Source: Ginglymostoma cirratum
Taxonomy: Eukaryota
NCBI GenBank assembly: GCA_024137785.1
Contig: JAHRHZ010000143.1
Location: 1 to 64,000 of the forward strand
DNA: 64,000 nt
Direction: 5' to 3'
This document shows, piece after piece, positions 6,827 to 63,549 of the stretch. Below the pieces are notes generated by a model. That model did not search any database, was not told where the DNA came from, and worked only from the letters and a program-made list of their open reading frames with translations. Positions within the stretch are counted from its first letter, which is position 1, and every line of letters begins with the position of its first letter. A program made the position numbers and the translations under genes.

Positions 6827-7772
6827 AAAGCAGAAATGTAATACCTTCCATTTCACCCCTTTCCAATCATCCCAGACCCCAACATTCCTTCCAAGTGATT
6901 TAATCACAACTCTTTCAACTTGGTGTATTCTATCTGCTACTCAGTCTGACCTTCTTGACACAGGGGAACCTAAACACTGCCTGGTAACTTGCCCACTCAG
7001 TACTCAAGCCTGGCCCTGAAATGTCATTTGCCTCTTTCAACTCTCCTTACTTCTATATCTCTGACAGTTCCAGAAAGAGCATCTCCCAACTTCCAAGCAC
7101 CCTGAAGCAAAGTATATGTGATTCTACCCCCCCTGCTATGTAGTTTTAGACATTAGGTTATGCATCAGGTGCAATATAACTACAATGACCTACAGCTGCA
7201 CTTAAATCTCCATTGGGCCAATTAAACCAGCTGGACACTTTAGAAGGTTAGTATTCAATTCTGAGGTAACAAGACAATAAATCGATTCCACTTGCTTGAT
7301 CAAAAATTTTTTAAATTAGCTGTCTTGGAGTGAAATATGTGCAGAACGTCTTCATTTCAAAACACAATACATTCAGCTTACAGGAAAACCTGGGTGGGTT
7401 GCTTAGCTGTGCATCACTTTCATTCTAAAATTAGTGCAGTAGCAGCTTAATATGGATTCCATTTAGTATGAAAATGCTCTCAAGTATTATACAAGCACTG
7501 GACTGCTGGACAGAGAAACATTGCTGCAACTAAACACAAACTTCGCTGCTCACTTTGGGGAAAATGGGCTTTAATGCTTCATTTCCAAGGACTCTATTTA
7601 AAGAACAATTATTGGGTGATTAGGTATTGCTGAAAGGAAGTATGCTCAAAAAAAAAACCATTCTGAATGATAATTAGTTGTAAAATTCCAATATAACTAA
7701 CCTCATCAGAATAAGACTAAAAATTTGAATGAGAATATATCTTCGCCTTTAAAGAGAAATGATTTGAGAGTG

Positions 7773-7974
7773 TAGGAACTGCAGATGCTGGAGAATCTGA
7801 GATAACAAGGTGTGGAGCTGGATGAACACAACAGGCCAAGCAGCATCAGAGGAGCAGGAAAGCTCGACGTTTCAGGCCATTTCTGAAGGAGGGTCTAGGC
7901 CCAAGACATCAGCCTTTCTGCTCCTCTGATGCTGCTTGGCCTGCTGTGTTCATCCAGCTCCACACCTTGTTATC
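7773..7974. mobile_element. Palindromic 202-bp mini-element made of two inverted PLE tails; perfect 15-bp TSD
   Basis: aatgatttgagagtg at 7758-7772 and 7975-7989. Arms 7801-7878 and about 7900-7974 are reverse complements. Confidence 0.9.
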
Positions 7975-8222
7975 AATGATTTGAGAGTGGCGTTTTCCTC
8001 TATAGACTATTCCACTGATGTCATGGTTTAATTTTATCCATGTTTTGATAATGTTCAAACCTAACCACACTCATTGGGAAAAGTGACGCTTAGTTGCTCA
8101 TGAGGTGTGGGAGTCACTAGGCTAGGTCAGCATTTATTGTCCATTCCTAACTGCCATTGTGCCAAAGTGAGGAGGTGGCATATGTGAATGTTATTATGTA
8201 CTTTACACCTCCACCCCACCAC

Positions 8223-8263
8223 CACACACACACGCACACGCACGCACGCACACGCACACGCAC
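8223..8263. repeat. (CA)n/(CACG)n microsatellite
   Basis: cacacacacacgcacacgcacgcacgcacacgcacacgcac. Confidence 0.9.
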
Positions 8264-8554
8264 AAAAAGCAATTTTTAAATTCTGAAGTGTATCAGTGTT
8301 TTATTTTAACCATTTCTCCTTTCAGGGAAGTGGGAATTTGTCATCGTGCTTACTCAAATTTAAATGTTTTGATTTGAGTGTATCAGCCTGATGAACTGGT
8401 TGTACTTTGGGATGTGATTCAGCAGGTTGTAGACTTAAACCCACTCCACAATTTGTGCATACACCGTAGGGAAAATCCTCCACACAGATGCTCGTTATCC
8501 ATCGGACTGGAAGTTAAACCAAGGTTTTGTTCACATAGTAGGACAAAAATATGA

Positions 8555-11816: not shown

Positions 11817-13316
11817 TATAGGGCCTTAGATGGCAAGGGGAGTGAAGTACAAGGATAGACGCTGCATCTCCACTTCTCTGAAGAGCTATTTCGAGAAGGG
11901 GCCAAAGTCTTGGGGATGATTGATCAATGATCCAGGGTGTCACAGAAAGAACAGTCATAAGAAATGCTAAAAGGAAATGGAAGGGATAGAAGTAGGATTG
12001 TGGTATCATGTTGGAAATGGCAGGTGACCTATTGAATGCAGAGTTCGTGGAGTGTAAGGTGAAGGAAGCGGGAATGCTTTCAAGGATCTGGGAAAATGGG
12101 CTGAGTCAAGGGCCCTGTCAACTACAGCGAGGGATGAATTCTCAACTGAGGAAACAGACATATCAGAGATGCCAGTGTGCAAGGCTACATCATCAAAACA
12201 GATGCAACATAGGCAGAGAAACTCGGGGAGGGAAAAAAAGAAAGAGGTCATGCAGGAAATGTGGTGTGAGGAAATGTAGTTAAGGGAGTCAATGGGCTCA
12301 TTGTGAATTGTTGCCGATTATCTCCATTTCTACGGTTGGGCTGAGAAGTCGAGGAGGACAAGAATCAGAGATAGGCAAGGTAAGGGTGAGAGAAGTGTGG
12401 AAATTGAAGGGACTGTTGATTAAATTTTCCAGTTCTGGCCAACTGCAGGAAATGGCACCAACAGTCCATGTACGAAGATAGGAGAAGTGAAAGAGGGATA
12501 TTAAGCAAGTCTGGAATAAAGGATGTCCCAGATATCCCACAAAATAAAACAAACATAGCCAGTACCCTTACAGGTTCTCAAAGCAACGTCTCCTACTTGG
12601 AGCCATTAAACAATATCTCACATGACTCTGCTCAACGTGAGAAATATTCACACAGCTAGAGGAAGATGGTACTGCATTGGGATTGGTTCAATGTAAGACC
12701 AGAGAGCTCCTGGCTCACCAGAGTAAAGGATGGAAATATAGAGAAACTAGACATCTGCAGCAATCGGGACAGTGAAACTGCAAAAGTGGCAAAGGACATC
12801 AGAAAGGTCATGACCGAAGGTGGAAAGAGACTAGAAGGGAGGGGAGAAAATAAGTCACAACAAATGGAGTTTTGTGGGGAAAGAAGAGACAGGAGCATGG
12901 AGGGCAGATCTCTAGCTAACAGGACAACAGTGACCATCTTGGAACGAATGGTTTGGTATTCAGTGTTGTTGTCATTACCCAATGGGAACAGCATCTCTTT
13001 CAATAACATCTGGTCAGACTTAATATTAAATTGCAACAATTTACCCTCATTTTTGAGCAGTAGGTATCGGTAATGGATCTGCTAGTCCCAGTTACAATTA
13101 CTATTTCTTGACATTATCATTCATTTCCCTTGTACTATCATCCCGTGTTATTCAATTCTCCTACCACCTCCCCCACCATCACAAACTTTCCATTTTGCAC
13201 TTTGTCCCCTTCCATTAATTAGAAATTATTTCAACTTTAAGAAGTGGCCATTCAGATGAAGAATCACTGACTTGAATGTTAACCTCTGTTTCTCCCTCCA
13301 GATATGCTGCTTGATT

Positions 13317-14638: not shown

Positions 14639-14752
14639 GAGATAGCAAGAACTGCCAATGCTGGAGTCAGAAAAAACACAGCAGGCCAGGCAGCATCGGA
14701 GGAGCAGGAAAGATGACGTTTTGTGTCGGTACCCTTCTTCAGAAAATAAAAT
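14639..14752 (-). mobile_element. 114-bp PLE-tail insert
   Basis: Tail plus hammerhead remnant; TSD gctcagtca at 14630-14638 and 14753-14761. Confidence 0.8.
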
Positions 14753-18264: not shown

Positions 18265-18392
18265 AGAGATAATAGGTACTGCAGATGCTGGAGAATCCGA
18301 GATAACAAGGTGTGGAGCCGGATGAACACAGCAGGCCAAGCAGCATCTTAGGAGCAGGAAAGCTTGACATTTCGGGCCTAGACCCTTCATCA
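18265..18392 (-). mobile_element. PLE-tail insert truncated inside the hammerhead core
   Basis: Near-identical to the reverse complement of 34229-34355; similarity stops at (C)TGATGA. Confidence 0.82.
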
Positions 18393-20099: not shown

Positions 20100-20480
20100 G
20101 AGCGGGGAGGCTCCAAGCATGACCCAGACCCTCCTTCTCCCCACCCCCCACCCTAAGCCGGGTTGTCCCTCCTGGCCGGAGTTTTCCCCCCCAGCCCTGC
20201 CCTGCCCCTGGCTGTGATTGGAGTTACAGACTCACATTTGCTGTATCTCCATTGTGTCCTCCGCCTGTTGCCGACTGCGCTGAGTGAGCTCGGCGCGCTG
20301 CACCATTCCACTCAGAGGCGCGTGGGATGCTTCCCCGTGCCCCGCGCGCGCTCCATTGTCTGCGCTGTTGCCCGGGCGGTCACTGAGGCAACGCCGGCCG
20401 CTGCTCCGACTGTCTCAGTCTGACCCTCAGGGGAAACCAGGGAGGCGGCGCTTCCCGCAAACCATCTCCTCCAATGCCCC
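20100..20480 (-). promoter_or_regulatory. CpG island / promoter and 5' UTR of the minus-strand gene
   Basis: Abrupt GC- and CpG-rich stretch (cggcgcgc, cccgcgcgcg, acgccggccg) in CpG-poor background, overlapping the first exon. Confidence 0.8.
20236..20252 (-). CDS. KLHL2: Probable first coding exon of KLHL2 (MEIQQ+AT, phase 2); in-frame upstream ATG at 20306
   Basis: Minus strand reads ACA ATG GAG ATA CAG CAA AT|gtgagt inside a CpG island. Identity inferred from the head-to-head TMEM192/KLHL2 arrangement in human and the short 'ME...' first exon. No BTB/kelch exon is visible in the window, so the name is not directly proven. Confidence 0.6.
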
Positions 20481-21361
20481 ACAATGCTCCTCTCCTCACC
20501 TCCTCCTACCACCCCCCCCGAAAGCTTCCAGTTGCCTCCCAATTTTCCAACTTTTTTATTCCGCTTCGACTGTCAAAAGTGATATTTACCAGGTAATGCT
20601 ATACCAGGAGCTCCCTCTGGGTTGGAGGACCTGGAAGAAGCAGCCCTAATATGGGAATTATAAAGGAAAGTGTGGCAGTGTATCAAAAGCCTGCCTCCAG
20701 GTTACCTTTGGCATTGAATGCTGAACTGCACTTCATATTTAAAACCATGCACTTTAGAACAAACTGCAGGATTTCTGTACTGAAATACGTGATTCTGCCA
20801 GATTTTTTAAAAAATGCATACAGCGATTGCACATCTAAAGTGAAACCAAAACTGCTCGTCAGTGTATTCAATTTGTGCAGCATAAGGTTTCGCACAACGC
20901 GCTTTTTTAGTCACTTGGTTGTTGCTGTACGTCGACACTGTTTCCTTAGCAACTATTTTATTGATTCTGTTGACAACAATAACTTGCATTTCTATACTGC
21001 CTTTAGCATAGAAACACGTTGCAACATGCTTTGCAGAATGTTGTTGAGTAAAAGTTGACACTGGCTAGCCACATCATGAGGTATTAGGTCATATAATCTA
21101 GAACTTGGTGAAAGAAACAGGTTTTATGTAGAAAATTGAAGCAAGAGAGACTGTAGTACAGGTAGAGATAATTTCCAGAGCTTAGGGCCTAACTAGTGAA
21201 GGCACTGCCATTCCTAACAAGAGTGGAACATTTGGGGATGCGTACCAGGCTAGAACTGAAGAAGCATGAGAGGCTTCTAGGGCCACTGGGGTTTCGGAGA
21301 TAAGGGCTAAGGTTACTATGAAGGTGCTGCCTCCCAACCTTATCTGAGGCATGGTGATCCT

Positions 21362-21583: not shown

Positions 21584-24500
21584 GTGGCAACAAGAGAAAA
21601 AAAAGTGCATCTGAAGAAATTTGTTCACAACATTCGTCTTTGATTTGGGATATGCATTTCTGGCATCATGCCATTATGTGGGAAGTTTGAGTTGTTCGAT
21701 CCTGCTGTTGAAGACTGAGCCCAGTATGTGGAAGGAATGCGTTACTTTTTCTGGGCAAATGACATCGGGGCAGGTGAAAAGCAACGAGTAATTCACCTGA
21801 CAGCTTCAGAATCTGCAGCTTTATTGTTTATTAGGAGCCTAACATTTCCTGAGGCACCAGATACTAAAACCTTTCAAGAGATGACGGATTCAGTCAAGGA
21901 TATTACAACGCCAAGCCTCCTCTAATTCTGAGATGCTATTGGTTTTACTCGGCAGTTTCAAAACCAGAGAAATCCATGTCTGGATTTTTGACAAGGTTTA
22001 GATGATTGGCAGATGTGACTTTGGTTTAACCCTCAATGAGATGCTAAGAGACTGTTTGGTATGCGGGATTAATGATTTAACCATGTAAAAGCGCCTACAT
22101 GCAGAAGCCCAGCTGCACTTCAAACAGGCACTACAACTGGCTTTGTCATTAGAAAATGTGGCAAGTGGAGCTTGGGTTACAGCGTATGCTGATGGAAGCG
22201 GACACTGTTGGCAGGCTGACTGAGCTTGGGGACCACGATTTGAGTAAAGGCAATTGCACATCCTTACACAGGACATTTCCTGAACAGAGGGACTCTAGGT
22301 CAGCCCACAGCAAAACCCCAAAACGAAGCGAAGCCTCGGCCAAACGGTTAAAATTTTCTTCACAATCAGGGCTGGCAAGCTGTTGTAGTTGCTGTTGATA
22401 TGCAGACTTGAGACAGCAAAAGAATCCCATTAGACCTGAATTGAGTAAAATAACTCAATGGTTGGTATCCAGGAGGATGCAATTCCTGGAAAACCCAACT
22501 ATATTTGGCTTGGAACAGTTAAATTGCTTAGTAACATCCAAATCAGAACCAATCAAAATAAACATCTGGTTAAATGGTCACCTAGTTTAAATGGAGGTTG
22601 ATACCGACACGGCTGTATCAGTGATTGCAGAACCAGTCTGTAACAAAATTCACTCCAACCCTTGAGTTTGTATTAGATCTCGGCTAGACTGAGAACCTAT
22701 ATCAGGGAACTTTACAAATTAAGGGTATATCTTCAGTTTTGGTCTCATATGAGAAACCGCCGGTTCAGTTACCACTGATTGTAGTAAAAGGCTGACACCC
22801 AAGCTTGATGGGGCAAAATTGGTTGAGAAAGATTTACCTAGATCAGTTCAACATTTTTCGATTAGAAAGCAGATATGTGGGTGAAGTCTTAATTAATGCC
22901 CGGAAATTTTTCAGGAAGGTATAAGGACTATCAAAGGAGCCAACGCCACCTTGCCTGTTGACCAGGAAGCAATTCTATGATTCTGCAAGGCCCGCTCAGT
23001 GCCATTTGCCTTACGGGCAAAAGCGGAGGCAGAATAAGGAAGATGGAAAGCAAAGGAATCATCAAACTAGATTAATTTTAGGAATGGGCAGCACCGGTCG
23101 TACCAATTGTGAAGCCTGATGGGTCATTTCATCTTTGTGGAAATTTCAAACAAAGGGTGAACAGCCTCTCACAGCTTGATAAATACCCAATCCCTCACAT
23201 GGAGGACTTATACGCAAAGATGGTGGGGGGTGGGGGGTTTTCAGGCACCCCAAGTGACGTACTTGGGCTACAGAGTTGACAAGACTGAGTTATATCTGTG
23301 AAAGATAAAGTGATGGCGATGAATGGTGCCCCAGCTCCCACGTCTGTACCGGAGCTGAGGTCTTTCCTTGGATTAGTGAATTATTATGGAAAGTTCATAC
23401 ATAACCTGCCCCATCTTGGCACCCTTACACCTGCTTTTGAAAAAGGGTCAGTCTTGGAAATAGTCTCCTAGCCAAGACGTAGCCTTTAGGGAAGTGAAAA
23501 AGCAGCTATCATTGTCTAAGGTGTCGGCACACTATGATCCCAAAAGAGATCTCGTGCTGACATGCGATGTCTCCCCATACGGTATCAGGGTAGTGATGGC
23601 TTACAGATGGCCCAAGGAGAGGAATGTCCAATAGTGTATGCTTCCCAGACTTTAGCTGATGCAGGCTGCAAATATGCCCAAATAGAGAAGGAAAGTTTGG
23701 TGGTCATCTTTGGTGTGCGAAAGTTCCACCAACACCTTAACAGACATTAATTTGTAACAGTAACAGACCACAAACCCCAGCTAGGGCTATTCAAAGAGGA
23801 CAAGGCCACATTGCCCACAGCTTCAGTTTGAATTCAGCAGTGGGGTCTCATTCTAAGTGCGTACAATTACAAGTTGGAATACCGTCCAGGAGGCCAAGTA
23901 GCTAATGCGAATGCCTTGAGCTGCCTCCCGCTGACAGGTGCTACCACTGGAAGAGTCTGTTCTGGTTTTAAATTTTCTGGACACCCTTCTGGTCCCTGCT
24001 GCTAATATCAGACTTTGGATGCAAAAAGATCTGGTCCTGGCAAAACTAAAACAGACGATGGTGATGGGGGACACAAAAGAGCCATCACAACCAGAATTGA
24101 AATCTTTCTGGACCCGATGGGACCCGATCACCATAGAGGACTACATTTTATTTTGGGGAAAAAGAGTGATTGTCCCAAGCAAAGGGTGCCGCCAGATACT
24201 GGCTGAACTGCACCAGAGTCATCCAAGGGTTTCCAAAATGAAGATGTTGGTGAGAAGTTATGTCTGGTGGCCAGGATTGGATGCAGACATAGCTGCATTG
24301 ATGGGACATTGCCCAGAGTGCCACCAAGGGTGAAAATTATCACCAGCAGATCCCCCGCATTCGTGATACTGACTGGGTAAACCCTGGACTCATTTACATG
24401 TCAACTGTGCAGGTCCTTTCATGGGCTGTATGTTCTTAATCATTGTGGATGCCCACTCAAAGTGATTGGATGTGCATAGAGTTCACTCTTCAAACACATG

Positions 24501-25889: not shown

Positions 25890-28680
25890 CAGAACATGAG
25901 ACATAGGAGACCCTACAGTCCCCTAAGTTCAGCCTCAACTCCACTTTCCCATCAGCTCCCTATTACATTTGATTCTGAGAGTTCAAAAATATGTTTATTG
26001 AAGACTTAGATCTATCCAATAATGGAACATCCACATTTTTCCTGGGTGAAAATTCCAATGCTTCACAAGCCTTTGAGTGAAAACAGTTCGCCTTATCTCA
26101 GTATAAAATGATCACACATTCTCAGACTGTGTTCCTGTTCTCTCAACTGCCCAGCTGGGGAAAACAACATTTAAGACTGTATTCTGTCAATTTCCTTCAG
26201 AATCGTGACTGTTTCAATGGGATCGTCTTTCATCCATCTAAACTCCAAACAGCATAGGCTTAATTTACTCAGTCTTTCATCATAGGACAACTTCCTTCAT
26301 TCTAGAGACCAGTGTAGTGGTCTTTCATGCTATCATCTCCAAAGCAGGTATATTCTTTCTTAAATATGGAGACGAAAACTCCATTCCAAGTGTGGTCTCA
26401 CTCAAACCTGGACAATTGTAGCAAGACTTCTTCATTTCATTACTTCAGCTCCTTGCAATAAAGGCCAACATGCACATAATCTTCCAAATTGCTTGCTGTG
26501 TTTGTATGCTAACTTTGTGTTCCTTCTTGGAGTGCACCCACATGTTGAGTGACATCAACATTCAGTTTGATGCCTTTAAAAAAGTCTGCTTTTCTATTCT
26601 TACAGCCAAAGCGAATAACCTCATATTTCCCCATACTGTATTTGATCTGCCACTATGTGGCCCACTCACTTAACATGTTGATATCTCTTAACACCCTCTT
26701 TGTGTCCTCCTCACAGGTTACACTGCCACCTAGCTTGGTTTTATCAGCATTACGCTCAGTCTCTTCATCTAAATCATTAAGATGGTTGGTGAATATCTGA
26801 GACCCAAGCACCAACCTTTGCAACACTCCTCTAGATACAGTCTGTAAGCTTGAAAATTCACTTTTATCTGTACTTTTTACTTGCTTTCTGTTCATCACTC
26901 ATGTATCCATGCAAATATATAACCCCAATTCTGTGACTCCTAATCTTGTATATTAAACTTTTGTGTGGCTTTTACTGAAAGCCTTTTCAAAATCTAAGTG
27001 TACTACATGTAATAATACCCCATTCTCTCCTCTACAATTTTCATCCTCAAAAACTCTAATGTATTTGTCAAGAGATAGCAAGAACTGCAGATGCTGGAGT
27101 CAAAGACAACACAGTATGGAGCTGGAGGAACACAACAGGCCAAACAGCATCAGAGGAGCAGGAAAGCTGACGTTTCGGGTCAGGACCCTTCTTCAAAAAT
27201 GGGGAGGGGGATGGGATCTAGGAAATAAATAGCGAGAGGACGGGTGTGGCAGGGGAAGGTAGGTGGAACGGTGATAGGTGAGTGGTGGGGACTGTTCAGT
27301 GGGATGGGTGGGGCGGGTAGGTGGGAGAGAAGACGGACAGATTTTGTGTCAGGTCAAGGAGGCGGAATTGAGAAGGAGGCTTGGACATGAGATGAGGCTG
27401 GGAGTGGGGAGATTTTAAAACTGGTAAATTCCATGTTTAGGCCATCAGGCTGTCAGCTCCCCAGATGGAATATGAAGTGCTGCTCCTCCAGTTTGCAGGT
27501 GGTGTCATTGTGACACTGGAGGAGGCCCAGGATTGACATGTCACCCAGGGAATGGGAGTGGGAGATAAAATGGTTGGCGACCAGAACGTGTTGTAGTTTG
27601 TCATATATAGAACGCAGATGCTCTACAAAACGGTATGCAAGTCTATGCATACCTTTGCAAGTCTATCAGCTCACAGATATAGAGGAGGCCACATCAGGAG
27701 CAGTAGATATAGTAGACCAAGTAGTAGACAGACGTGCAGGTGAACCCTGTTGGATATGGAAGTTTTGTTTTGTGCCTTGAATGGAGGTGAGGGGGGGAGC
27801 TGTAGGAGCAGGTGTTGCACTTCCTGTGGTTCCAGGTAGAGGTGCCAGGGGTGATGGGGTTAGTGGGTGTGGTGGGGGTAGTGGGGACTGTGGAGCGGAT
27901 GAGGGAGTCGCAGAGAGAGCAGTTCATACAAAAGGCAGATACGGGTCAGGAGGGAAATATTTCTTCGTTTGTGGGGTCGGATTGTAGGTGCCGGAAGTGA
28001 CGGAGAATGATACGTTTGTTGCGGAGGTTGGTGGGGTGATTTGTGAAGACAAGTCTTTATTGACTTTCTCCAATTATGCTCACTCTGCTTTAATTAAGTG
28101 CATTGTTAAAGCTTCCTTAACAAGAGATTTCAGCAATTTCCTGATGTCCAATTTCAGACTAACTGACCAGTAGTTCTGTTTTCTCTCTCGCCCTCCCTTC
28201 TTGGATTGCAGAATTACAGTTTCTAAATTCCAGCCCTCTGGGGCTGCTCTACAATCTAGGGAATTTTGCAAAACCCTAACCAGTGCATCTGATATCCTGC
28301 AGCTACTTTTAGAACCCCAGGATGTACCCATCAGGTGCTGGGGTTTTTATGCCTCATTATTTTTTTTCTGCTGATATTAATTACTTTAAGATCCTCACTC
28401 TTTTTAGCCTTTTTGTTATCCATCTCCTATGTAATTTGTGTCAGTCTACTGTGAAGACAGAACAAATTATGTGTTTATTGCCTCTGCCAGTTTCCCTTTC
28501 CCTGTGACATTTTCTCCCATCTCTGCCACGAAGGAACAAACAGTCACTTTAGCTTCTGTCATGTCATTTTTGTACATGAAAAAGCTCTTGCAATTTGTTT
28601 TCATGTTATTGACTACTTCCTCCCATATGCTAATTTTCACATTTTATTAACAATTTGGATTCCCTTTGCTGATACAATTG
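25890..28680 (-). mobile_element. CR1 LINE, decayed, split by a PLE
   Basis: VSRGVLQRLVLGSQIF...NDLDE...ADKTKLGG RT motif; KKGGRERKQNYWSVSL. Confidence 0.85.
27070..28040 (-). mobile_element. Neptune-type PLE 3' fragment nested in a CR1 LINE
   Basis: GIY-YIG remnant (RLAYRFVEHL...VANHF...MSILGLLQC...EEQHFIFHLG) plus the family tail. Imperfect TSD atttgtcaaga/atttgtgaaga. Confidence 0.88.
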
Positions 28681-32330: not shown

Positions 32331-32460
32331 TCATTTAGTTTCTCACTGCTATGTGGAAGAATTGCAAACTGCAAATAAATGAGATGAGAATAGGTTATAG
32401 ATAACAAGGTGTGGAGCTGGATGAACACAGCAGGCCAAGCAGCATCATAGGAGCAGGAAA

Positions 32461-32496
32461 GCTTGACGTTTCGGGCCGAGACCCTTCTTCAGAAAT
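32461..32496 (-). ncRNA. Minimal hammerhead motif (intact core, weak stem I)
   Basis: CUGAAGA-A-GGGU-cucg-GCCC-GAAA-CGUC. Confidence 0.7.
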
Positions 32497-34224
32497 GGGG
32501 TAGGGGAAGAGGGTTCTGAAATAAATAGGGAGAGAGGGGGAGGCGGATAGAGGATGGATAGAGGAGAGGATAGGTGGAGAGGAGGCAGACAAGTCAAAGA
32601 TGCGGGGATGGAGCCAGTAAAGGTGAGTGTAGGTGGGGAGGTAGGGAGGAGATAAGTAAGTCCAGGGAGGACGGACAGGTCAAGGGGGCAGGATGAGGTT
32701 AGTAGATAGGAGATGGGGGTGCGGCTTGAGGTGGGAGGAGGGGTTAGGTGAGAGGAAGAACAGGTTAGGGAGGCGGGGACGAGCTGGGCTGGTTTTGGGA
32801 TGCGGTTGGGGAGGGGAGATTTTGAAGCTTGTGAAATCCACATTGATGCCATTGGGCTGCAGGGTTCCCAGGCTGAATATGATTTGCTGTTCCTGCAGCC
32901 TTCGGGTGGCATCATTGTGGCATTGCAGGAGGCCCAGGATGGACATGTCGTCTGAGGAATGGGAGGGGGAGTTGAAATGGTTTGTGACTGGGAGGTGCAG
33001 TTGTTTGTTGCGAACTGAGCGCAGGTGTTCTGCAAAGCGTCCCCAACCCTCCGCTGGGTTTCCCCGATGGAAAGGAGGCCACAACGGGTACACCTATTCC
33101 CAATTCCTTCGCCTCCGCTGCATCTGCTCCCAGGATGAGGCATTCCACTCCCGTACATCTCAGATGTCCTCATTCTTCAAGGACCGCAACTTCCCCCCCG
33201 CAGTGGTCGAGAACGCCCTCGACTGTGTCTCCCGCATTTCCCACAACTCATCCCTCACACCCCGTCCCCACAATAACAACCAAAAAAGAATCCCCCTCGT
33301 CCTCACGTACCACCCCACCAACCTCCGGATCCAACGCATCATCCTCCAACACTTCTGCCATCTGTAATCCGACCCCACCACCAAAGACATTTTTCCCTCC
33401 CCACCCTTGTCTGCTTTCCGGAGGGACCACTCTCTCTGTGACTCCCTTGTCCGCTCCACACTCCCCTCCTGCCCCACCACACCCGGCACTTTTCCCTGCA
33501 ACCGCAGGAAGTGCTACACCTGCCCCCACACCTCCTCCCTCACCCCCATCCCAGGCCCCAAGAAGACTTTCCACATCAAGCACTTGTTCACCTGCACATC
33601 TGCTAATGTGGTATACTGCATCTGCTGTACCTGTTGTGGCCTCCTCTACATCGGGGAAACCAAGCGGAGGCTTGGGGACCGCTTTGCAGAACACCTGTGC
33701 TCGGTTCGCAACAAACAACTGCACCTCCCAGTCGCAAACCATTTCAACTCCCCCTCCCATTCCTCAGACGACATGTCCATCCTGGGCCTCCAGTAGTGCC
33801 ACAACGATGCCACCCGAAGGCTGCAGGAACAGCAAGTCATATTCAGCCTGGGAACCCTGCAGCCCAATGGTATCAATGTGGATTTCACAAGCTTCAAAAT
33901 CTCCCCTCCCCCTACTGCATCCCAAAACCAGCCCAGCTCGTCCCCGCCTCCCTAACCTGTTCTTCCACTTGCCTATCCCCTCCTCCCACCTCAAGCCGCA
34001 CCCCGATTTCCTACCTACTGACCTCATCCCGCCCCCTTGACCTGTCCGTCCTCCCTGGACTGACTTATCGCCTCCCTACCTCCCCATCTACACTCACCTT
34101 TACTGGCTCCATCCCCGCCTCTTTGACTTGTCTGTCTTCTCTCCACCTATCCTCACCTCTATCCAACTTCTATCCGCCTCCCCCTCTCTCCCTATTTATT
34201 TCAGAACCCTCTTCCCCTCCCCCA

Positions 34225-34258
34225 TTTCTGATGAAGGGTCTAGGCCCGAAACATCAAG
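34225..34258 (+). ncRNA. Minimal hammerhead motif (core intact, stem III altered)
   Basis: CUGAUGA-A-GGGU-cuag-GCCC-GAAA-CAUC. Confidence 0.65.
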
Positions 34259-36424
34259 CTTTCCTGCTCCTATGATGCTGCTCGGCCTGCTGTGTTCATC
34301 CAGCTCCACACCTTGTTATCTCAGATTCTCCAGCATGTGCGGTACCTATTATCTAAGAATAGGTTATAATGTTAATGCCTCTCACTGTTCACTAGCAAGA
34401 TTCTTGTGTTACTGTTCAAACCTTGGGGGCAAAATCAGAACTTTCTTTGCCAACATCAAGCATTTAAATTTTCCAATCTCACTGTATTTTCCCAACTCAC
34501 TCACCATTGCCAACATTGTTCAGGAGCTAGGAGGATTCTGCCCAGGTAATTGGTAGGATACTGCAGACATAAGTGACCAGTTTAGAGCTTTTCTAAAAAT
34601 CCATTCTTTCTTTTTGTATCAACATTGGTGTGTTATCTTTCACGCAATAAATTATATCATTTTCCTGCAGCAATGTGCAGACAGCAATGAGCAGCAAACA
34701 CTTCAGAAGATCAGCCATTATTGTACTGAGTGACCAAGCAGGCTGAACAGGCCATATTACCTACTCCTCGTCTTGTTTTTATATTCTTAAAATAACGTTC
34801 TGGAATACAGTATCGGAGGAATTTGAGACATAATGTACTTAAGAGATCAGGTGACTTTAAACTGATGATTTCAAGATGTTTTTACCAGTGGCTGTTTTTC
34901 TTGACTCTTGGTGAATGTATTGTAGATAATTGTTAGAGATTTATTGCCATGATTTGTCAATAACTCCATCATTGTTATATCATGTAACTATCAGAATTGT
35001 AAAAGGTACATTAGGTGGGCTATTGTATATGTTCACCATACAAATCCTATAGTCTCTGCAGTTAAGATTTGTAATTTTATTTAATATATTTTGTTTTTGT
35101 GTTGCCTGTACAGGATCAAAAATAAAAATATAATAAAAATACAGGAATAATTAATCATTTCAAATTAGTTGTTAATTTTTGTCTCCATGTAAAATATACT
35201 TCTCACTACGCATTAAATAGAACTGAGCGAATTCTGCTCTCAGACTCCCACTGTTGCCACTTATACAAGCATATGAATAAGGAAGTCTTTCAGTCCCTGA
35301 AGCTTCTCTATTCTAAATATGGTTCAGTAAGGATCTTTATTTCTTTCCTGTTGGGAAAATACTGTGTACTTCCTGGGTTTAGCAGCTCAATAGCATCTAA
35401 GGGAAAGCTGCTACATGCAGTGTAAATGGACACTTGAGTTCCACTTCAGTTTTGCACCTGAATAACATTGGAGCTAAATTTCCTCTTTTTTTTTGAAAAT
35501 AGTGCCTGACTGTGTCTGATAATGTCAGTTTTATATAATTGAAGGTTAGAGATCTATGGACTCAGATTTCAATTTGGAATGTTGAGTCTAGTTGAAACTA
35601 AACAGCTCCTAGAAAAATCTGGCACAACAGCTTGCAGTGCCTGGGCTTCCCCTGAACCACTGACAGCTGCTCCCTCCTAAACAATATGAAACGCATCAGA
35701 AAAAACAAGTGGAAGCTGGGTCTTTGAACGCATTCAAAGCAAGATAGGTTTTTAATATTCAAGGAAATCAAGGGTTATGCAGGTTAGACAGGAAAGTGGA
35801 GTTGAGACCACAACCAGATCAGCCATGATCCCATTGAAAGGCGGAAAAGGCACAAAGGATCAAATGACCTATTCTTGTTCCCAAGTCCCATCTTTCTACG
35901 TAGAATGTTCCATGTCTGTACCGTCAACTTTTATACAGAGACATGTTTCCCCTGTTCCTCGACCTGCTGCTTTGGCACAATGACAACACTCCCTCATCAG
36001 CTGTCTACAAGGTCGATGACAGAGGTCCAATTAAATATTATGCCAAGTTTGGATTTCAGTTCCAAGTCCATCCATGCCACAGCAGTACAAACCTATTCAC
36101 AAGGGACGGAAGCTTTGAACGAACATGACAACCTCCAACATGTAAATCATGACTGCCAGCATATATAAATTACATCAGAAACAAAGGACAAGCCATTCTT
36201 AAACGTTCAGATAGAAATCCCATAACTGGACAAAATCAAAAGGTTGACTGTCCTATAGGGCTTTCATTGATTGTATGTGCTCCTTTCATGGTACTGATGC
36301 TACTAAGGTCTAAAATGAGCTTTCAAGATGGCACCAACACAAGGCAATTCTCTGCGAGCTCTCTACAGCAGATCCTATTCTCACATTTCTTACAATCATT
36401 GCACAATTTTCTCTGTCCAATCAC

Positions 36425-46452: not shown

Positions 46453-47493
46453 CTATTGTTTTGGAGTAGATCTGTAGCTCGGGTTGTGGGTGTTGAGGTT
46501 GGTTGGCTCGCTGAGCTGGTTTGTTGTTTCGCAGACGTTTCATTACCGTGCTGTGTAACATCCTCAGTGCAGCCTCTGGTGAAGCGTCGGTGTGTTTTCC
46601 CGCCTGGTTTTTAAACTCTGGGGTCCGTTGAGATGGATTGCCTCACTTCCGGGTTTCCTCCCTAGTGGAATGTATATGGGGTCAAGTTCAATGTGTTTAT
46701 TAATAGCATGCTTCGTGGAGTGCCATGCTTCCAGGAATTCTCGTGCCTGTCTCTGCCTAGCCTGTCCCAGGATCTTGGTGTTGTCCCAGTCGAAGTCGTG
46801 GTTCTCCTTGTCCATGTGGATTGAGATGAGTGAGTATTGGCCGTGTCCTTTTGTAGCCAGTCGGTGTTCATGTACTCGTGTTGTTAGTTTCCTTCCTGTT
46901 TGTCTGATGTAGTGTTTCTCGCAGTCTCTGCAGGGGATCTTGTAGATGACATTGGTCCTGTCCATGGCAGGGAGTGGGTCTTTAGCTCGGGTTAGCACTT
47001 GTCGTAGGGTTGACGTGGGCTTGTGTGCCACTCTGATGCCCAGCAGTCGTGGGAGTCTTGTGGTGAGTTCCGACAAGTTCCTGATGTAGGGTAGTGTGAT
47101 GAGTGTGTCGGTGCGTGTAGAATCTTTCTGATGCTGTTCCTGTAGGCATCTCCTGACCCAGTTCTTTGGATATCCATTATCCTTGAAAACCTGGAAGAGG
47201 TATTCTTCTTCCTCTTGGCATAGTTACCATAGTACAGTGTGCTGTTGCCCTTTTAAATAGTGTTCGCACGCAGCTTCGTTTGTGACTACTGGGATGGTTA
47301 CTATTGAAGTTCAGTACCTGGTTTGTGTGTGTGGCTTTAAGGTGTACTTTCGTTTGCAGTTCCCCATTTGTCTTGCGCTCTACCATGTCGTCCAGGAATG
47401 GGAGCTTTTTGTTCTTCTCTTCTTCTCTGTTGAATTTTATTCTGGTGAGGGTGTTGTTTATAAGTTTGTGTGTCTCCTCTAATTTGGTCCATT
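46453..47493 (-). mobile_element. Penelope-like element (Penelope/Poseidon-type), 5'-truncated
   Basis: ORFs 47177-47542 (RT: IKFNREEEKNKKLPFLD...KATHTNQVLNFNSNHP) and 46564-47076 (GIY-YIG: NVIYKIPCRDCEKHYIRQTGRKL). Flanking direct repeat taccactact at 46443-46452 and 47494-47503. Confidence 0.92.
46530..46571 (-). ncRNA. Minimal type I hammerhead ribozyme motif (intact core)
   Basis: Minus strand UGCA-CUGAGGA-U-GUUAC-acagcacg-GUAAU-GAAA-CGUC-UGCG: 4-bp stem I, 5-bp stem II, GUC site. Confidence 0.82.
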
Positions 47494-47579
47494 TACCACT
47501 ACTTCTGGAGCTCCTCAAGGTGCAGCATTGGCTCCTACCCATTTCAAATCTACATGCATGCCCTTGACAGCATCATCAA

Positions 47580-53909: not shown

Positions 53910-54385
53910 CTCTCTAACATGCTGCTCAGTTTCTCTAGGATTCTTTCTAACATACTACTGTTTCTCCAGGACTCTCTGTTTCTCTCTTTCTGTTGTAACG
54001 CTGAGTTTCTCTGGGAACCTGTGTTTCTCTCTCTCTCTCTAATATATTGCCCAGTTTCTCCAGGACTGTTTTTTCCCCTTTTTAATATATTGCGCAGTTT
54101 CTCCAGGATTCTGTGTTTATCTCTCTAATATATTGCCCAGTTTCTCCAGGCCTCTGTGTTTTTCTCTCTCTCTTTAATATATTGCCCAGTTTCTCCAGGA
54201 TTCTGATTTTTTCCTTTTTTTCAATATATTGCTCAGTTTCTCCACAACTCTGTGTTTATGTCTCTCTCTGATATATTGCTCAATTTCTCCAGAACTCTGT
54301 GTTTTTGTCTCTAATATATTGCTCAGTTTCTGCAGGACTCTCTTTGGTTTTTCCTCTTTCCAACATGCTGCTCAGTTTCTCTGTT
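53910..54385 (+). repeat. Minisatellite, about 11 units of about 40-48 bp, upstream of TMEM192
   Basis: Recurrent ctctctaatatattgc(c/t)cagtttctccagga(c/t)tctgtgttt. Confidence 0.9.
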
Positions 54386-54863: not shown

Positions 54864-55125
54864 AATAAAAACAGAATGAACAGCGGATGCTATAAGTCAG
54901 GAACAAAAGCAGAAGTTGCTGGAGAAGCTCAGCAGGTCTGGCAGCATCTGAAGAAGAAAACAAAATCAGAGTGAATGTTCTGGGTCTGGTGACCCTTCCT
55001 GTGAGGAGAGGTCATTAACTGTTTTGTTATTCCTTCTACACAGATGCTGCCAGACCTGCTGAGATTTTCCAGCAACTTCTGTGTTTTGTTCCTGATTTAC
55101 AGCATCTGCAGTTCTTTTGGGTTTT
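54864..55125. mobile_element. Palindromic mini-element from a second PLE tail family, TMEM192 intron 1
   Basis: agaagttgctggagaagctcagcaggtctggcagcatctg mirrored by cagatgctgccagacctgctgagattttccagcaacttct. The arms meet at broken hammerhead cores near 55000. Confidence 0.8.
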
Positions 55126-56754
55126 ATAACCTATGCAAGGATATGAGAAAGAGGAATCCAGGATAAGAACAAAAGACAGAAAGAGAAGTAAGAAAAGTGA
55201 TGGTTAGAGAAATCAAAGGCTAGCATCAAACAAGACTACAGTGAAAATAATAGAAACAGGACACCATTAAAAGAAAAGGCCTAAGGTGTTGTGCCTTAAT
55301 GTGTCAAGCATTGGCAATTAAGTGGATGAATTAATTAAACAAATAGGTGAAAGTGGGTATGATATTATCAGGATTACAGAAACCAAGCAGCAAGGTGACC
55401 AAGGATGGGAAACAAACATCTATGGGACTCTGTATTTAGGAAGGACAGACTAAAAGGAAAAGATGGTGGAGTCGTACCTCTGGTTAAAGGAAATATTGAA
55501 TGCAATACTGAGGAGGAGTATTAGCTCTAACCATGTGGAATCTGAAGAGCTGAGTAACGCTAAGGGGCAAAATACATTGGTGGTTGTATGTAGACCCCCA
55601 AACTGTAGGGGTGATTTTGGAAATGGCATTAAACAGGAAATTAGATTCACATGCAATATTGGAATATCTGGAACTTATGGGTGACTTTAATCTGCATATA
55701 GATTGGGCAAATCAAATCAGAAGCAACACTGTGTTGTGGAGGAATTCCTGGAGTGTATACAAGATAATTTTTTCCACCAATATGTGGAGGGACCAACTGG
55801 AGCCAGAGTAATTAAAAAAGGAATAATTGGCAGTCTAGTTGTGCGAAGCCCCTTGAGGACAAGTAAGGATAATATGATCATTCTTCATCAAGCTGGAGAG
55901 TAATGTAGTTGATTCTGAGATGATAGTCCTGAATCTAAATAGACAAAACTATAATATTATGAGATATTGACTGATGGATTGAGCAATTTTATTTAAAGGG
56001 ATGACAATAGCAAACATTCAAATGACAGGCAGTGACTAGTGGGGTAACATAAGGATCGGAGTTTGAACCCCAGCTATTTGCAATACATGTTAATGATTTT
56101 AGATGAAGAAACTAAACATAATATCTCCAAAATTGCAGATAACACAAAGCTGAGTGGGAAGGTGAACTATGAGGAGGATGCAGTGATGCTTCAGTGTGAC
56201 TTTTTAAAAAATTTTGGCGAGCTAAGTGAGTGGGCAAATGCAGTATAATGTGGTTAAATGTGAGGTTATTCACTTTTTGGTATCAAAAATGGGAAGCTTA
56301 TTATGTAGATGGCTATAAATTGAAAGACAGAAATGTTCAATAAGACCTGGGTGTCCTCATACACCAATGGCAGCAGGTAAGCATGCATGTGCAACAGGCA
56401 GTGAAGAAAGCAAATAGTATGTTGGCCTTCATAGTGACAGGTTTCAAGTACAAGACCAGGGACGACCTGTTGCAATTATACATGACCTCTTGTGAGACCT
56501 TGCCTGGCATATTGTGTGCAGTCCTAGTCTCCTTAATTGAGGAAGGAAGAGAGTGCAGCGAAGGTTTACCAGATTGATTCCTGGGATGGCAGATCAGAGG
56601 TTGAAGCAGTCAGAATTGTATTTGCTGGAGTTCAGAAGAATGAAAGGAGCATCTCAGAAATCTATAAAATTTCAAAAGGACCAGACAGAGTAGATACAGG
56701 AACAATCTTCCTGATAGAAGGGGAATCCAAAATTAGGTGTCACTGTCTAAGGAT

Positions 56755-62301: not shown

Positions 62302-63377
62302 GTGAGGAAGTAATTGCCAGGATAAGGGTGTTTGGGTACTTAACTAATACCTATGACATGCAAAGTTCCTTGGAGGATAAAGGCATCACCTGATACACTG
62401 TTAAGTTATGTGGATTTGAAAATCACATTTGCTTGCATTCTCATACAAGAGAATGCTCTGCTTTGAAGGTAGAAAGTGGTAACACACCTTGAACTGCAAA
62501 CTAACTGGAGGAGATAGCAAAATTCTTTCTGTTGCAGCACACTGAACTGGAAAGAAGTTTGCTCCAGTCATCTTGCATCATTTTGAGGTGGTGGCCTTCA
62601 GCAAAATATCACTAATCTCCACATCTAGCCAAATGTATACATACACTTACTTCTCGGATATGGTGTAAAAACTTTGTAAACTACTCCATGGCATAAATGG
62701 GGCAGTTATTTCATGCAGGGGATTCTGCTTATAACACTGTTACATCATGTTGTAGAAAATTGCGCTATAGAAATAACGGGGCTTATAGGAAAAGTGAGGT
62801 TAAGGGCAGACCACCAAAAAACGTCACTCAAAATCACAGAAAATTCTTCCTCATCACTCTCCCATAAGTATTGGTGCCATGTCCGTCACTTGTGTGAGCC
62901 TTGAAACTTCTAATCAAATAAAATCTATTCACTTGCAACATAGTCTGCATCACAGCCTAGCCCATTGCTGATCTGACTTGACATTCCGTCAGCACAGACT
63001 TCTGGATAGATTGTCAGATAAGTGAGGCAGAGGAATCTGACCTTTCTTCCGTATGTAGCCCATTGACATTGAAGTTAATTGTTGGATTAAAATGTGTGAT
63101 AAACCTGAGTAACATTGTATTCAAAATAGTGCTGGTAAAGAGCAGGTTGTAACAGACAACTTATTTTGTTATAAATGATTTACATGGGCAAGTTCAAAAG
63201 TTCTCACATATTTAATATGTAACAAAATCTAGGCAGAAATAATACACACAAAGGTGCATGTTTTATCAGCATTCATTATTTTAAACTATACTTCATTAAA
63301 TGCCAAAAAGTGTTCAGCATAAACTCTTCAAACTAAGACGTCACGTATTTTCTTAATAAGACAATTGTTCTCTATGA

Positions 63378-63549
63378 GATAACAAGGTGTAGAGCTGGAT
63401 GAATACAGCAGGCCCAGCAGCATCAGAGGAGCAGGAAAGCTGACGTTTTGGGTCTGGACCCTTCTTCAGTGGATCTCTCTCCCACTGCAACCCTCTTGTA
63501 ATCACCTTGTTATCTCAGATTCTCCAGCATCTGCAGTTCCTACTGTCTC
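63378..63549. mobile_element. Inverted two-arm PLE-tail mini-element in TMEM192 intron 3
   Basis: Minus arm 63378-63469, short filler, plus arm 63503-63549. Imperfect TSD tgttctctatga/tgttctctgtaa. Confidence 0.82.

Follow-up and report, generated by a model that had tools for sequence, protein, structure and literature searches.

A 202-bp palindromic insert in Ginglymostoma cirratum composed of two head-to-head Penelope-like element ends

The 64,000-nt stretch of Ginglymostoma cirratum DNA analysed here (the window) contains a short palindromic insert that mimics a MITE but is flanked by a 15-bp target site duplication (TSD). The question raised by this locus was whether the palindrome is the product of a DDE transposase, a replicating family of its own, or an insertion product of a Penelope-like element (PLE). 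Published articles are cited by PMC number.

Structure and genomic setting of the focal insert

The insert at 7773-7974 comprised 202 bp and was flanked by a perfect 15-bp direct repeat (Table 1), as an earlier sequence-only reading had proposed. Exact recurrence of a 15-mer 150-300 nt downstream was found at only three positions in the 64-kb window, one of which was the focal site. Arm comparison also upheld the unequal length of the two arms. One arm stopped at CCTTGTTATC and the opposite arm continued 28 nt beyond. The inverted arms at 7794-7864 and 7911-7981 were 71 nt long and 92% complementary. The RNA fold reached -148.7 kcal/mol with z = -16.1, and 0 of 200 shuffles were equally stable. 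The stem that had been predicted was present, with a measured length of about 71 bp in place of the proposed 75 bp.

Arm positions are given relative to the inner TTATC site (= 0). In minus-strand orientation, the focal site consisted of the TSD, a reversed tail-less arm (-98 to 0), a 2-nt microhomology, a forward arm (-77 to +28) and the second TSD copy. The tail of the family measured 33 nt and was bounded by two TATC(TC) sites. The final bases of the focal tail were either absent or identical to the first bases of the duplicated target. The two arms differed at a subfamily indel, and locus L003 had the same asymmetry and the same junction.

Table 1. Coordinates of the focal insert, its parts and the long family member in the window
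Feature	Position	Strand	Basis
TSD, left copy, 15 bp	7758..7772	.	one copy only at the orthologous empty site of both relatives
PLE tail on this arm only; 28 nt, versus 33-35 nt in the family	7773..7800	-	arm comparison; tail as defined in PMC8557442 and PMC11167929
pLTR end forming the body of the tailed arm, truncated on its 5' side at -77	7801..7878	-	arm comparison
3' half only of a minimal hammerhead (end of helix II, GAAAC, GTC)	7866..7878	-	sequence versus motif of PMC4209133
Head-to-head junction, 2-nt microhomology common to both arms	7877..7878	.	arm overlap of 2
Tail-less arm, from -98 (common 5' stop zone of the family) to the inner TTATC site	7877..7974	+	arm comparison
Full-length minimal hammerhead remnant	7883..7910	+	both core boxes and cleavage triplet deviate from the family motif
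TSD, right copy, 15 bp	7975..7989	.	direct repeat; empty site in relatives
Long family member: tail-less inverted arm 32400-33092 and tailed forward arm 33093-34355, 13-bp TSD	32400..34355	+	GIY-YIG fragment with CX4CX2C linker

By eye, the family motif fitted the minimal hammerhead of PMC4209133, with CUGANGA, an extra nucleotide, a G10.1-C11.1 helix II, GAAA, a palindromic 15.2-16.2 and NUH. Both remnants in the focal insert were broken, with an intact core in neither. The full-length remnant was predicted to be inactive because its core boxes and cleavage triplet deviate from the family motif. A search of the whole window with Rfam at the gathering threshold gave no matches. The description of the insert as two PLE tails joined over hammerhead remnants was correct for the PLE ends and for both remnants. 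A tail of the 33-nt type was present on one arm only.

The orthologous site, proposed earlier as a check, was recovered from two relatives. One 1,212-nt contig of organism B aligned to 7300-7757 and 7975-8149, with adjacent coordinates in the record and 217 bases skipped, equal to 202 + 15. One contig of organism C aligned to 7300-7765 and 7985-8500, with 219 bases skipped. In both relatives the site lacked the insert and contained one 15-mer, not two, and their flanks differed from the window at 24-28 of about 455 bases. Since the empty site held a single 15-mer in both, the TSD is real and was made on insertion, which bore out the proposal of target-primed insertion. The absence of the insert from both contigs dates the insertion after the split from these organisms, and it is lineage-specific. 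Flank contigs of the same species (runs X1 and X2) were identical to the window, and none spanned the insertion site. A 16-nt stretch present in both relatives was absent from the window at 8087-8088. The focal locus is a single insertion of two head-to-head PLE end pieces and an ordinary dead stub.

A location in the intron of a minus-strand gene, as claimed before, was not confirmed. Pfam gave nothing above the cut-off for a host exon around the focal site in 140 of the 217 ORFs of at least 45 aa in positions 1-22000, splice-site scans and ORF reading gave no host gene, and a homolog search with ORF 12656-13081 was empty. A CpG-rich stretch at about 20200-20600 may be a promoter, with no gene tied to it. 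The plus strand at 23935-24333 contained an integrase zinc-binding domain (PF17921, E 5.7e-12), the remnant of an LTR retroelement.

The parent Penelope-like family

The focal arms were 91-92% identical to the end of a 1.96-kb insert in the same window, the long family member of Table 1. The two inserts had the same layout, which together with the arm identity corroborated the earlier view of the focal insert as a short form of this architecture. An ORF in the long copy matched GIY-YIG just below the Pfam cut-off. RT motifs including YIDD were detected in another family copy, on a 191-aa RT fragment that was not recognised by Pfam and was identified from its motifs and homologs. The proteins closest to the family RT were those of whale shark with 90% and zebra shark with 87% identity, and the top homolog showed RVT_1 (below cut-off) followed by GIY-YIG.

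The RT with a C-terminal GIY-YIG nuclease that characterises EN+ PLEs was present, as seen in the family copies and the top homolog. An inverted 5'-truncated copy adjoining a direct pLTR, with a tail at one end, was also found, the tail comprising 28 nt at the focal site and 33 nt in the family. TSD formation on insertion was evident from the empty site and from family TSDs compared with a null. The proposed PLE origin was upheld, the arms being the pLTR of an RT/GIY-YIG family. Beyond the tail, a common continuation in 16 of 30 loci matched the N-termini of homologous proteins. The ORF N-terminus lies shortly downstream of the tail, in a partial-tandem pLTR-ORF organisation. A linker with CNRRKCYTC and inner cysteines was found in ORF 33368-33796 and in P0001, and its CX4CX2C pattern fits the Neptune/Nematis definition of PMC8557442. 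The family is putatively Neptune-like, judged by its cysteine linker.

Further copies of the family in the window were a copy cut by the window edge (1-45), an older stub (14675-14745), a solo tailed stub (18267-18392) and an older long copy (27073-28053). ORF fragments on the minus strand at 46564-47572 look like the nuclease and the end of the RT of another PLE; they lack the cysteine linker and are Poseidon-like by eye, and Pfam found nothing above the cut-off in these ORFs. A distantly related stub resembling a PLE end was located at about 54990-55160, and an exact 15-mer recurred at 54036-54122.

The layout of EN+ PLEs given in PMC8557442 (Fig. 2) and PMC3846280 comprises an inverted 5'-truncated copy, a tail of 30-40 bp at one end and a TSD. 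Pen2a_Av of Adineta vaga has an inverted pLTR, a 31-bp tail and a 9-bp TSD (PMC3846280). The layout of the focal insert is already published in this sense. As in Pen2a_Av and in Penelope of D. virilis (Fig. 1C of PMC2377424), an inverted 5'-truncated pLTR adjoins the direct one, with one tail, a TSD and a head-to-head junction. Differences from this layout were the lack of an ORF between the focal arms, which measured 202 bp in all, and the very high number of stubs, at about 21 per Mb in the sample. The focal TSD of 15 bp was longer than the 8-10 bp given for A. vaga. Truncated PLEs (PMC4209133) also carry a minimal hammerhead in the pLTR, and those of Schistosoma have opposite-strand motif pairs with a spacing of about 100-700 bp, whereas the focal motifs abut and are both broken or partial.

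Copy statistics and the origin of the palindromes

Family copies were counted in six hand-picked regions including this window, with 806 kb of readable sequence; two of eight regions (200 kb) were unreadable and left out. The sample held 111 arms, forming 19 head-to-head pairs and 73 unpaired arms. Seventeen pairs were short, with 115-236 bp, a density of about 21 per Mb (95% interval 12-34). On the assumption of a typical sample, this gives roughly 50,000-150,000 short palindromes in the genome. A tail was present on exactly one arm in 16 of the 19 pairs and on both arms in none (P = 0.0016 versus independent choice). In a wider set of 91 pairs, which omitted loci L001-030 and L201-230 because of how they had been picked, 64 of 67 clearly scored pairs had one tail and 24 were unclear. 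Two-tailed exceptions were one pair of the wider set and locus L004. The unpaired arms included 40 without and 29 with a tail, so that both RT start sites are also used singly.

TSDs of at least 10 bp flanked 12 of the 14 sampled palindromes that were readable. The figure was 14 of 21 among palindromes picked by pattern and 23 of 24 among those picked by BLAST, versus 4 of 580 mismatched flank pairs. The TSDs were long and variable, mostly 10-18 bp. Divergence within a pair was 6.1%, compared with 12.1% in permuted pairs, and 0 of 1,864 permutations were as low. The arms of one pair belong to one subfamily, and such matching could also arise by conversion between the arms after insertion. Five tailed arms of the sample were very short, and every one lay close to a tail-less arm of opposite orientation; this may reflect an RT that stalled behind its partner.

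The best explanation, which we consider probable, is that both cut target strands primed the copying of PLE RNA and that the two short cDNAs were joined. In vitro, a PLE protein nicks and extends both strands and is a predicted dimer, and its RT starts at two internal sites bracketing the tail, with ribozyme cleavage being unnecessary (PMC11167929). The GIY-YIG nuclease would nick both target strands about 13-17 bp apart. From each 3'-OH, RT would start at one or the other of two internal sites separated by 33 nt, yielding one tailed and one tail-less arm. For most cDNAs the template would be the pLTR at the 5' end of the RNA, with run-off after about 95-130 nt, shortly before the hammerhead. 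Their ends would be trimmed and joined by microhomology or filler, leaving a centre that differs from copy to copy. Two-sided priming accounts for the TSD, the one-tail rule, both solo types, the matched arms and the variable centre.

The 5' ends were profiled for 97 of the 111 arms; 14 were left out owing to an unreadable flank, a region edge or a position beyond the reference. Forty-seven arms ended at -99 to -90, a 10-nt zone just before the ribozyme and not at its cleavage site. A further 24 ended at -89 to -70, 12 at -69 to -30, five at -150 to -100 and nine further upstream. Ribozyme cleavage was rejected as the source of the 5' ends, with 2 of 97 at -69 to -60 and a predicted cut near -65. 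Genome-wide, 41,841 exact matches were obtained from -95 and 20,852 extended four template bases further; about half of the young copies go past the stop zone. Sixteen units ran into the ORF start, and 13 of the 15 readable ones began at or 3' of -99. The sequence at the stop zone resembles an initiator. An internal promoter within the pLTR has been described for Penelope (PMC2377424). It is plausible, and on the whole favoured by us, that the stop zone represents the 5' end of the RNA.

Two-sided priming may also be true with a stop zone produced by fall-off of RT at a C-run or at the ribozyme fold, and not by the RNA start. A C-rich tract was located directly upstream of the zone and the ends trailed from -98 to -70, both in agreement with fall-off. 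The bases preceding the ends were equivocal. A cap G has been described for L1 (PMC11702581), and copying of a cap would enrich G directly ahead of the end. Among the first 100 listed matches, counted by hand, G stood before -96 in 47, before -97 in 39 and before -98 in 23, with an expectation of 26%, and ends at -95 to -88 had a preceding G in 9 of 35. By eye, many of these Gs could stem from the opposite arm or a local duplication, and 12 of 16 G cases in the first 30 loci were derivable from element sequence or local duplication, confounding the count and leaving room for fall-off. However, a structural block should halt RT 3' of the fold, at about -60, where ends were rare. Copies past the zone ran for hundreds of bases through more C-runs, and the units with an ORF start mostly began within the zone. 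Fall-off is therefore regarded as possible but rather unlikely.

Loci L209, L210, L216, L217, L227 and L230 were mini partial tandems, in which a unit beginning in the stop zone followed one that carries the initial 35-300 nt of the ORF, as though RT had returned to the RNA after run-off. L276, L278 and L288 had a duplication of the initial 6-7 bases of the stub at the 5' end, which suggests slippage or re-priming at the stop zone.

A mirror arm could form without a second priming event if a single cDNA folded back and was copied, or if an antisense RNA did so, which is the proposal of PMC3846280. Junction palindromes are interpreted there as self-priming, and the origin of PLE inverted repeats and tail was called undefined in PMC8557442. 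The subfamily-matched arms agree with fold-back, as do short palindromic words near the junction zone. It predicts that one fixed arm is the longer one, whereas in the wider set 27 pairs had the longer arm on the tail-less side, 25 had it on the tailed side and 8 were tied. It also gives no reason for a mirror arm ending at the TTATC site where 40 solo copies end, and junction filler from elsewhere in the element occurs (63470-63502), which speaks against it as well. We consider fold-back improbable. The locus with this filler, at 63375-63548, consisted of a tail-less arm (-92 to +3), a 33-nt filler matching the 5' region of the element and an arm of little more than the tail (-11 to +34).

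Replication of the palindrome as a unit, transcribed and re-inserted as a non-autonomous element, was addressed through the central junctions, as had been suggested earlier. A junction-blind pattern gave 1,853 exact matches genome-wide, some loci being counted on both strands, and 30 loci fetched had 29 distinct junctions. With a looser pattern, the focal junction type had 22 exact matches genome-wide, and the focal junction was present in 15 of the 30 best BLAST loci, as unit replication would have it. L001 and L003 moreover had the junction, a rare variant and the arm asymmetry in common, and a common donor is possible for these two. Against this stood the diversity of the 30 loci, the focal sub-type, in which 2 of 88 matches had the focal junction, and the spread of the 15 BLAST loci over at least three sequence types. 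Arm differences common to same-junction copies were mostly at CpG or known variant sites, and a 2-nt microhomology junction can recur. Variable junctions and same-junction copies in different sequence types indicate that the palindrome does not propagate as a unit, and the search for a replicating family came out against one. Unit replication is accordingly held to be very unlikely, and the focal stub is very probably a one-off PLE insertion product.

MITEs are small, hairpin-forming, abundant and non-coding, with a short TSD of fixed length for each DDE superfamily. The shark stubs share smallness, hairpin formation, high copy number and lack of coding capacity with them, but mobilisation of the focal insert by a DDE transposase, doubted from the outset, is hardly conceivable given ends made asymmetric by a 28-nt unpaired tail that separates the inverted repeat from one terminus, a TSD that is long (15 bp here) and not of fixed length across copies, arms that are both the pLTR of an RT/GIY-YIG element, and non-uniform sizes and centres.

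Comparison with other retroelements and meaning for the family

A close biochemical parallel was Poseidon of Anolis carolinensis (PAc, PMC11167929). Two internal RT starts bracket the tail in PAc, the ribozyme lies near the ORF start and its cut does not mark the ends, all as in the shark family. The continuation of the element past the tail into the ORF N-terminus is common to the shark family, PAc and Pen2a_Av. PAc belongs to the Poseidon clade, whereas the linker of the shark family is the CX2-5CxxC type of Neptune/Nematis. The shark copies show a 5' stop zone and inverted products, neither of which is described for PAc in the available portion of that article. Twin priming of LINE-1 (PMC11702581) is similar in that the second target strand primes RT, with a discrete TSD of 12-18 bp and end joining by microhomology. 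In contrast, the L1 cDNAs copy adjacent, nearly non-overlapping stretches of RNA from a variable second site, while in the shark family one and the same stretch is copied into both arms, starting at two fixed sites. No account of the shark stubs or of a PLE 5' stop zone was found in the literature searched, which excluded Repbase, Dfam and key subscription papers.

The focal locus is of value as part of a natural sample of very large size. Two-sided priming is favoured by the copy statistics (a single tail per pair, arms that match, no arm-length bias and a stop zone bordering the ribozyme on its 5' side), which also provide sharp predictions for an existing in vitro system. Automatic annotation may label such stubs as MITEs. 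At about 21 per Mb, they could supply double-stranded RNA where transcribed. A wider reading, put forward tentatively and with some doubt, is a strong-stop-like step in PLEs. A dimeric enzyme would use two fixed sites of the 5' pLTR to prime both target strands, and both cDNAs would run off at the capped start of the RNA after about 95-130 nt, generating tens of thousands of 200-bp palindromes. Given internal RT starts and a promoter that may likewise be internal, solo stubs of 130 nt could themselves form a SINE-like class able to propagate on its own. If true, the strong-stop-like step would replace the antisense self-priming account of PLE inverted repeats.
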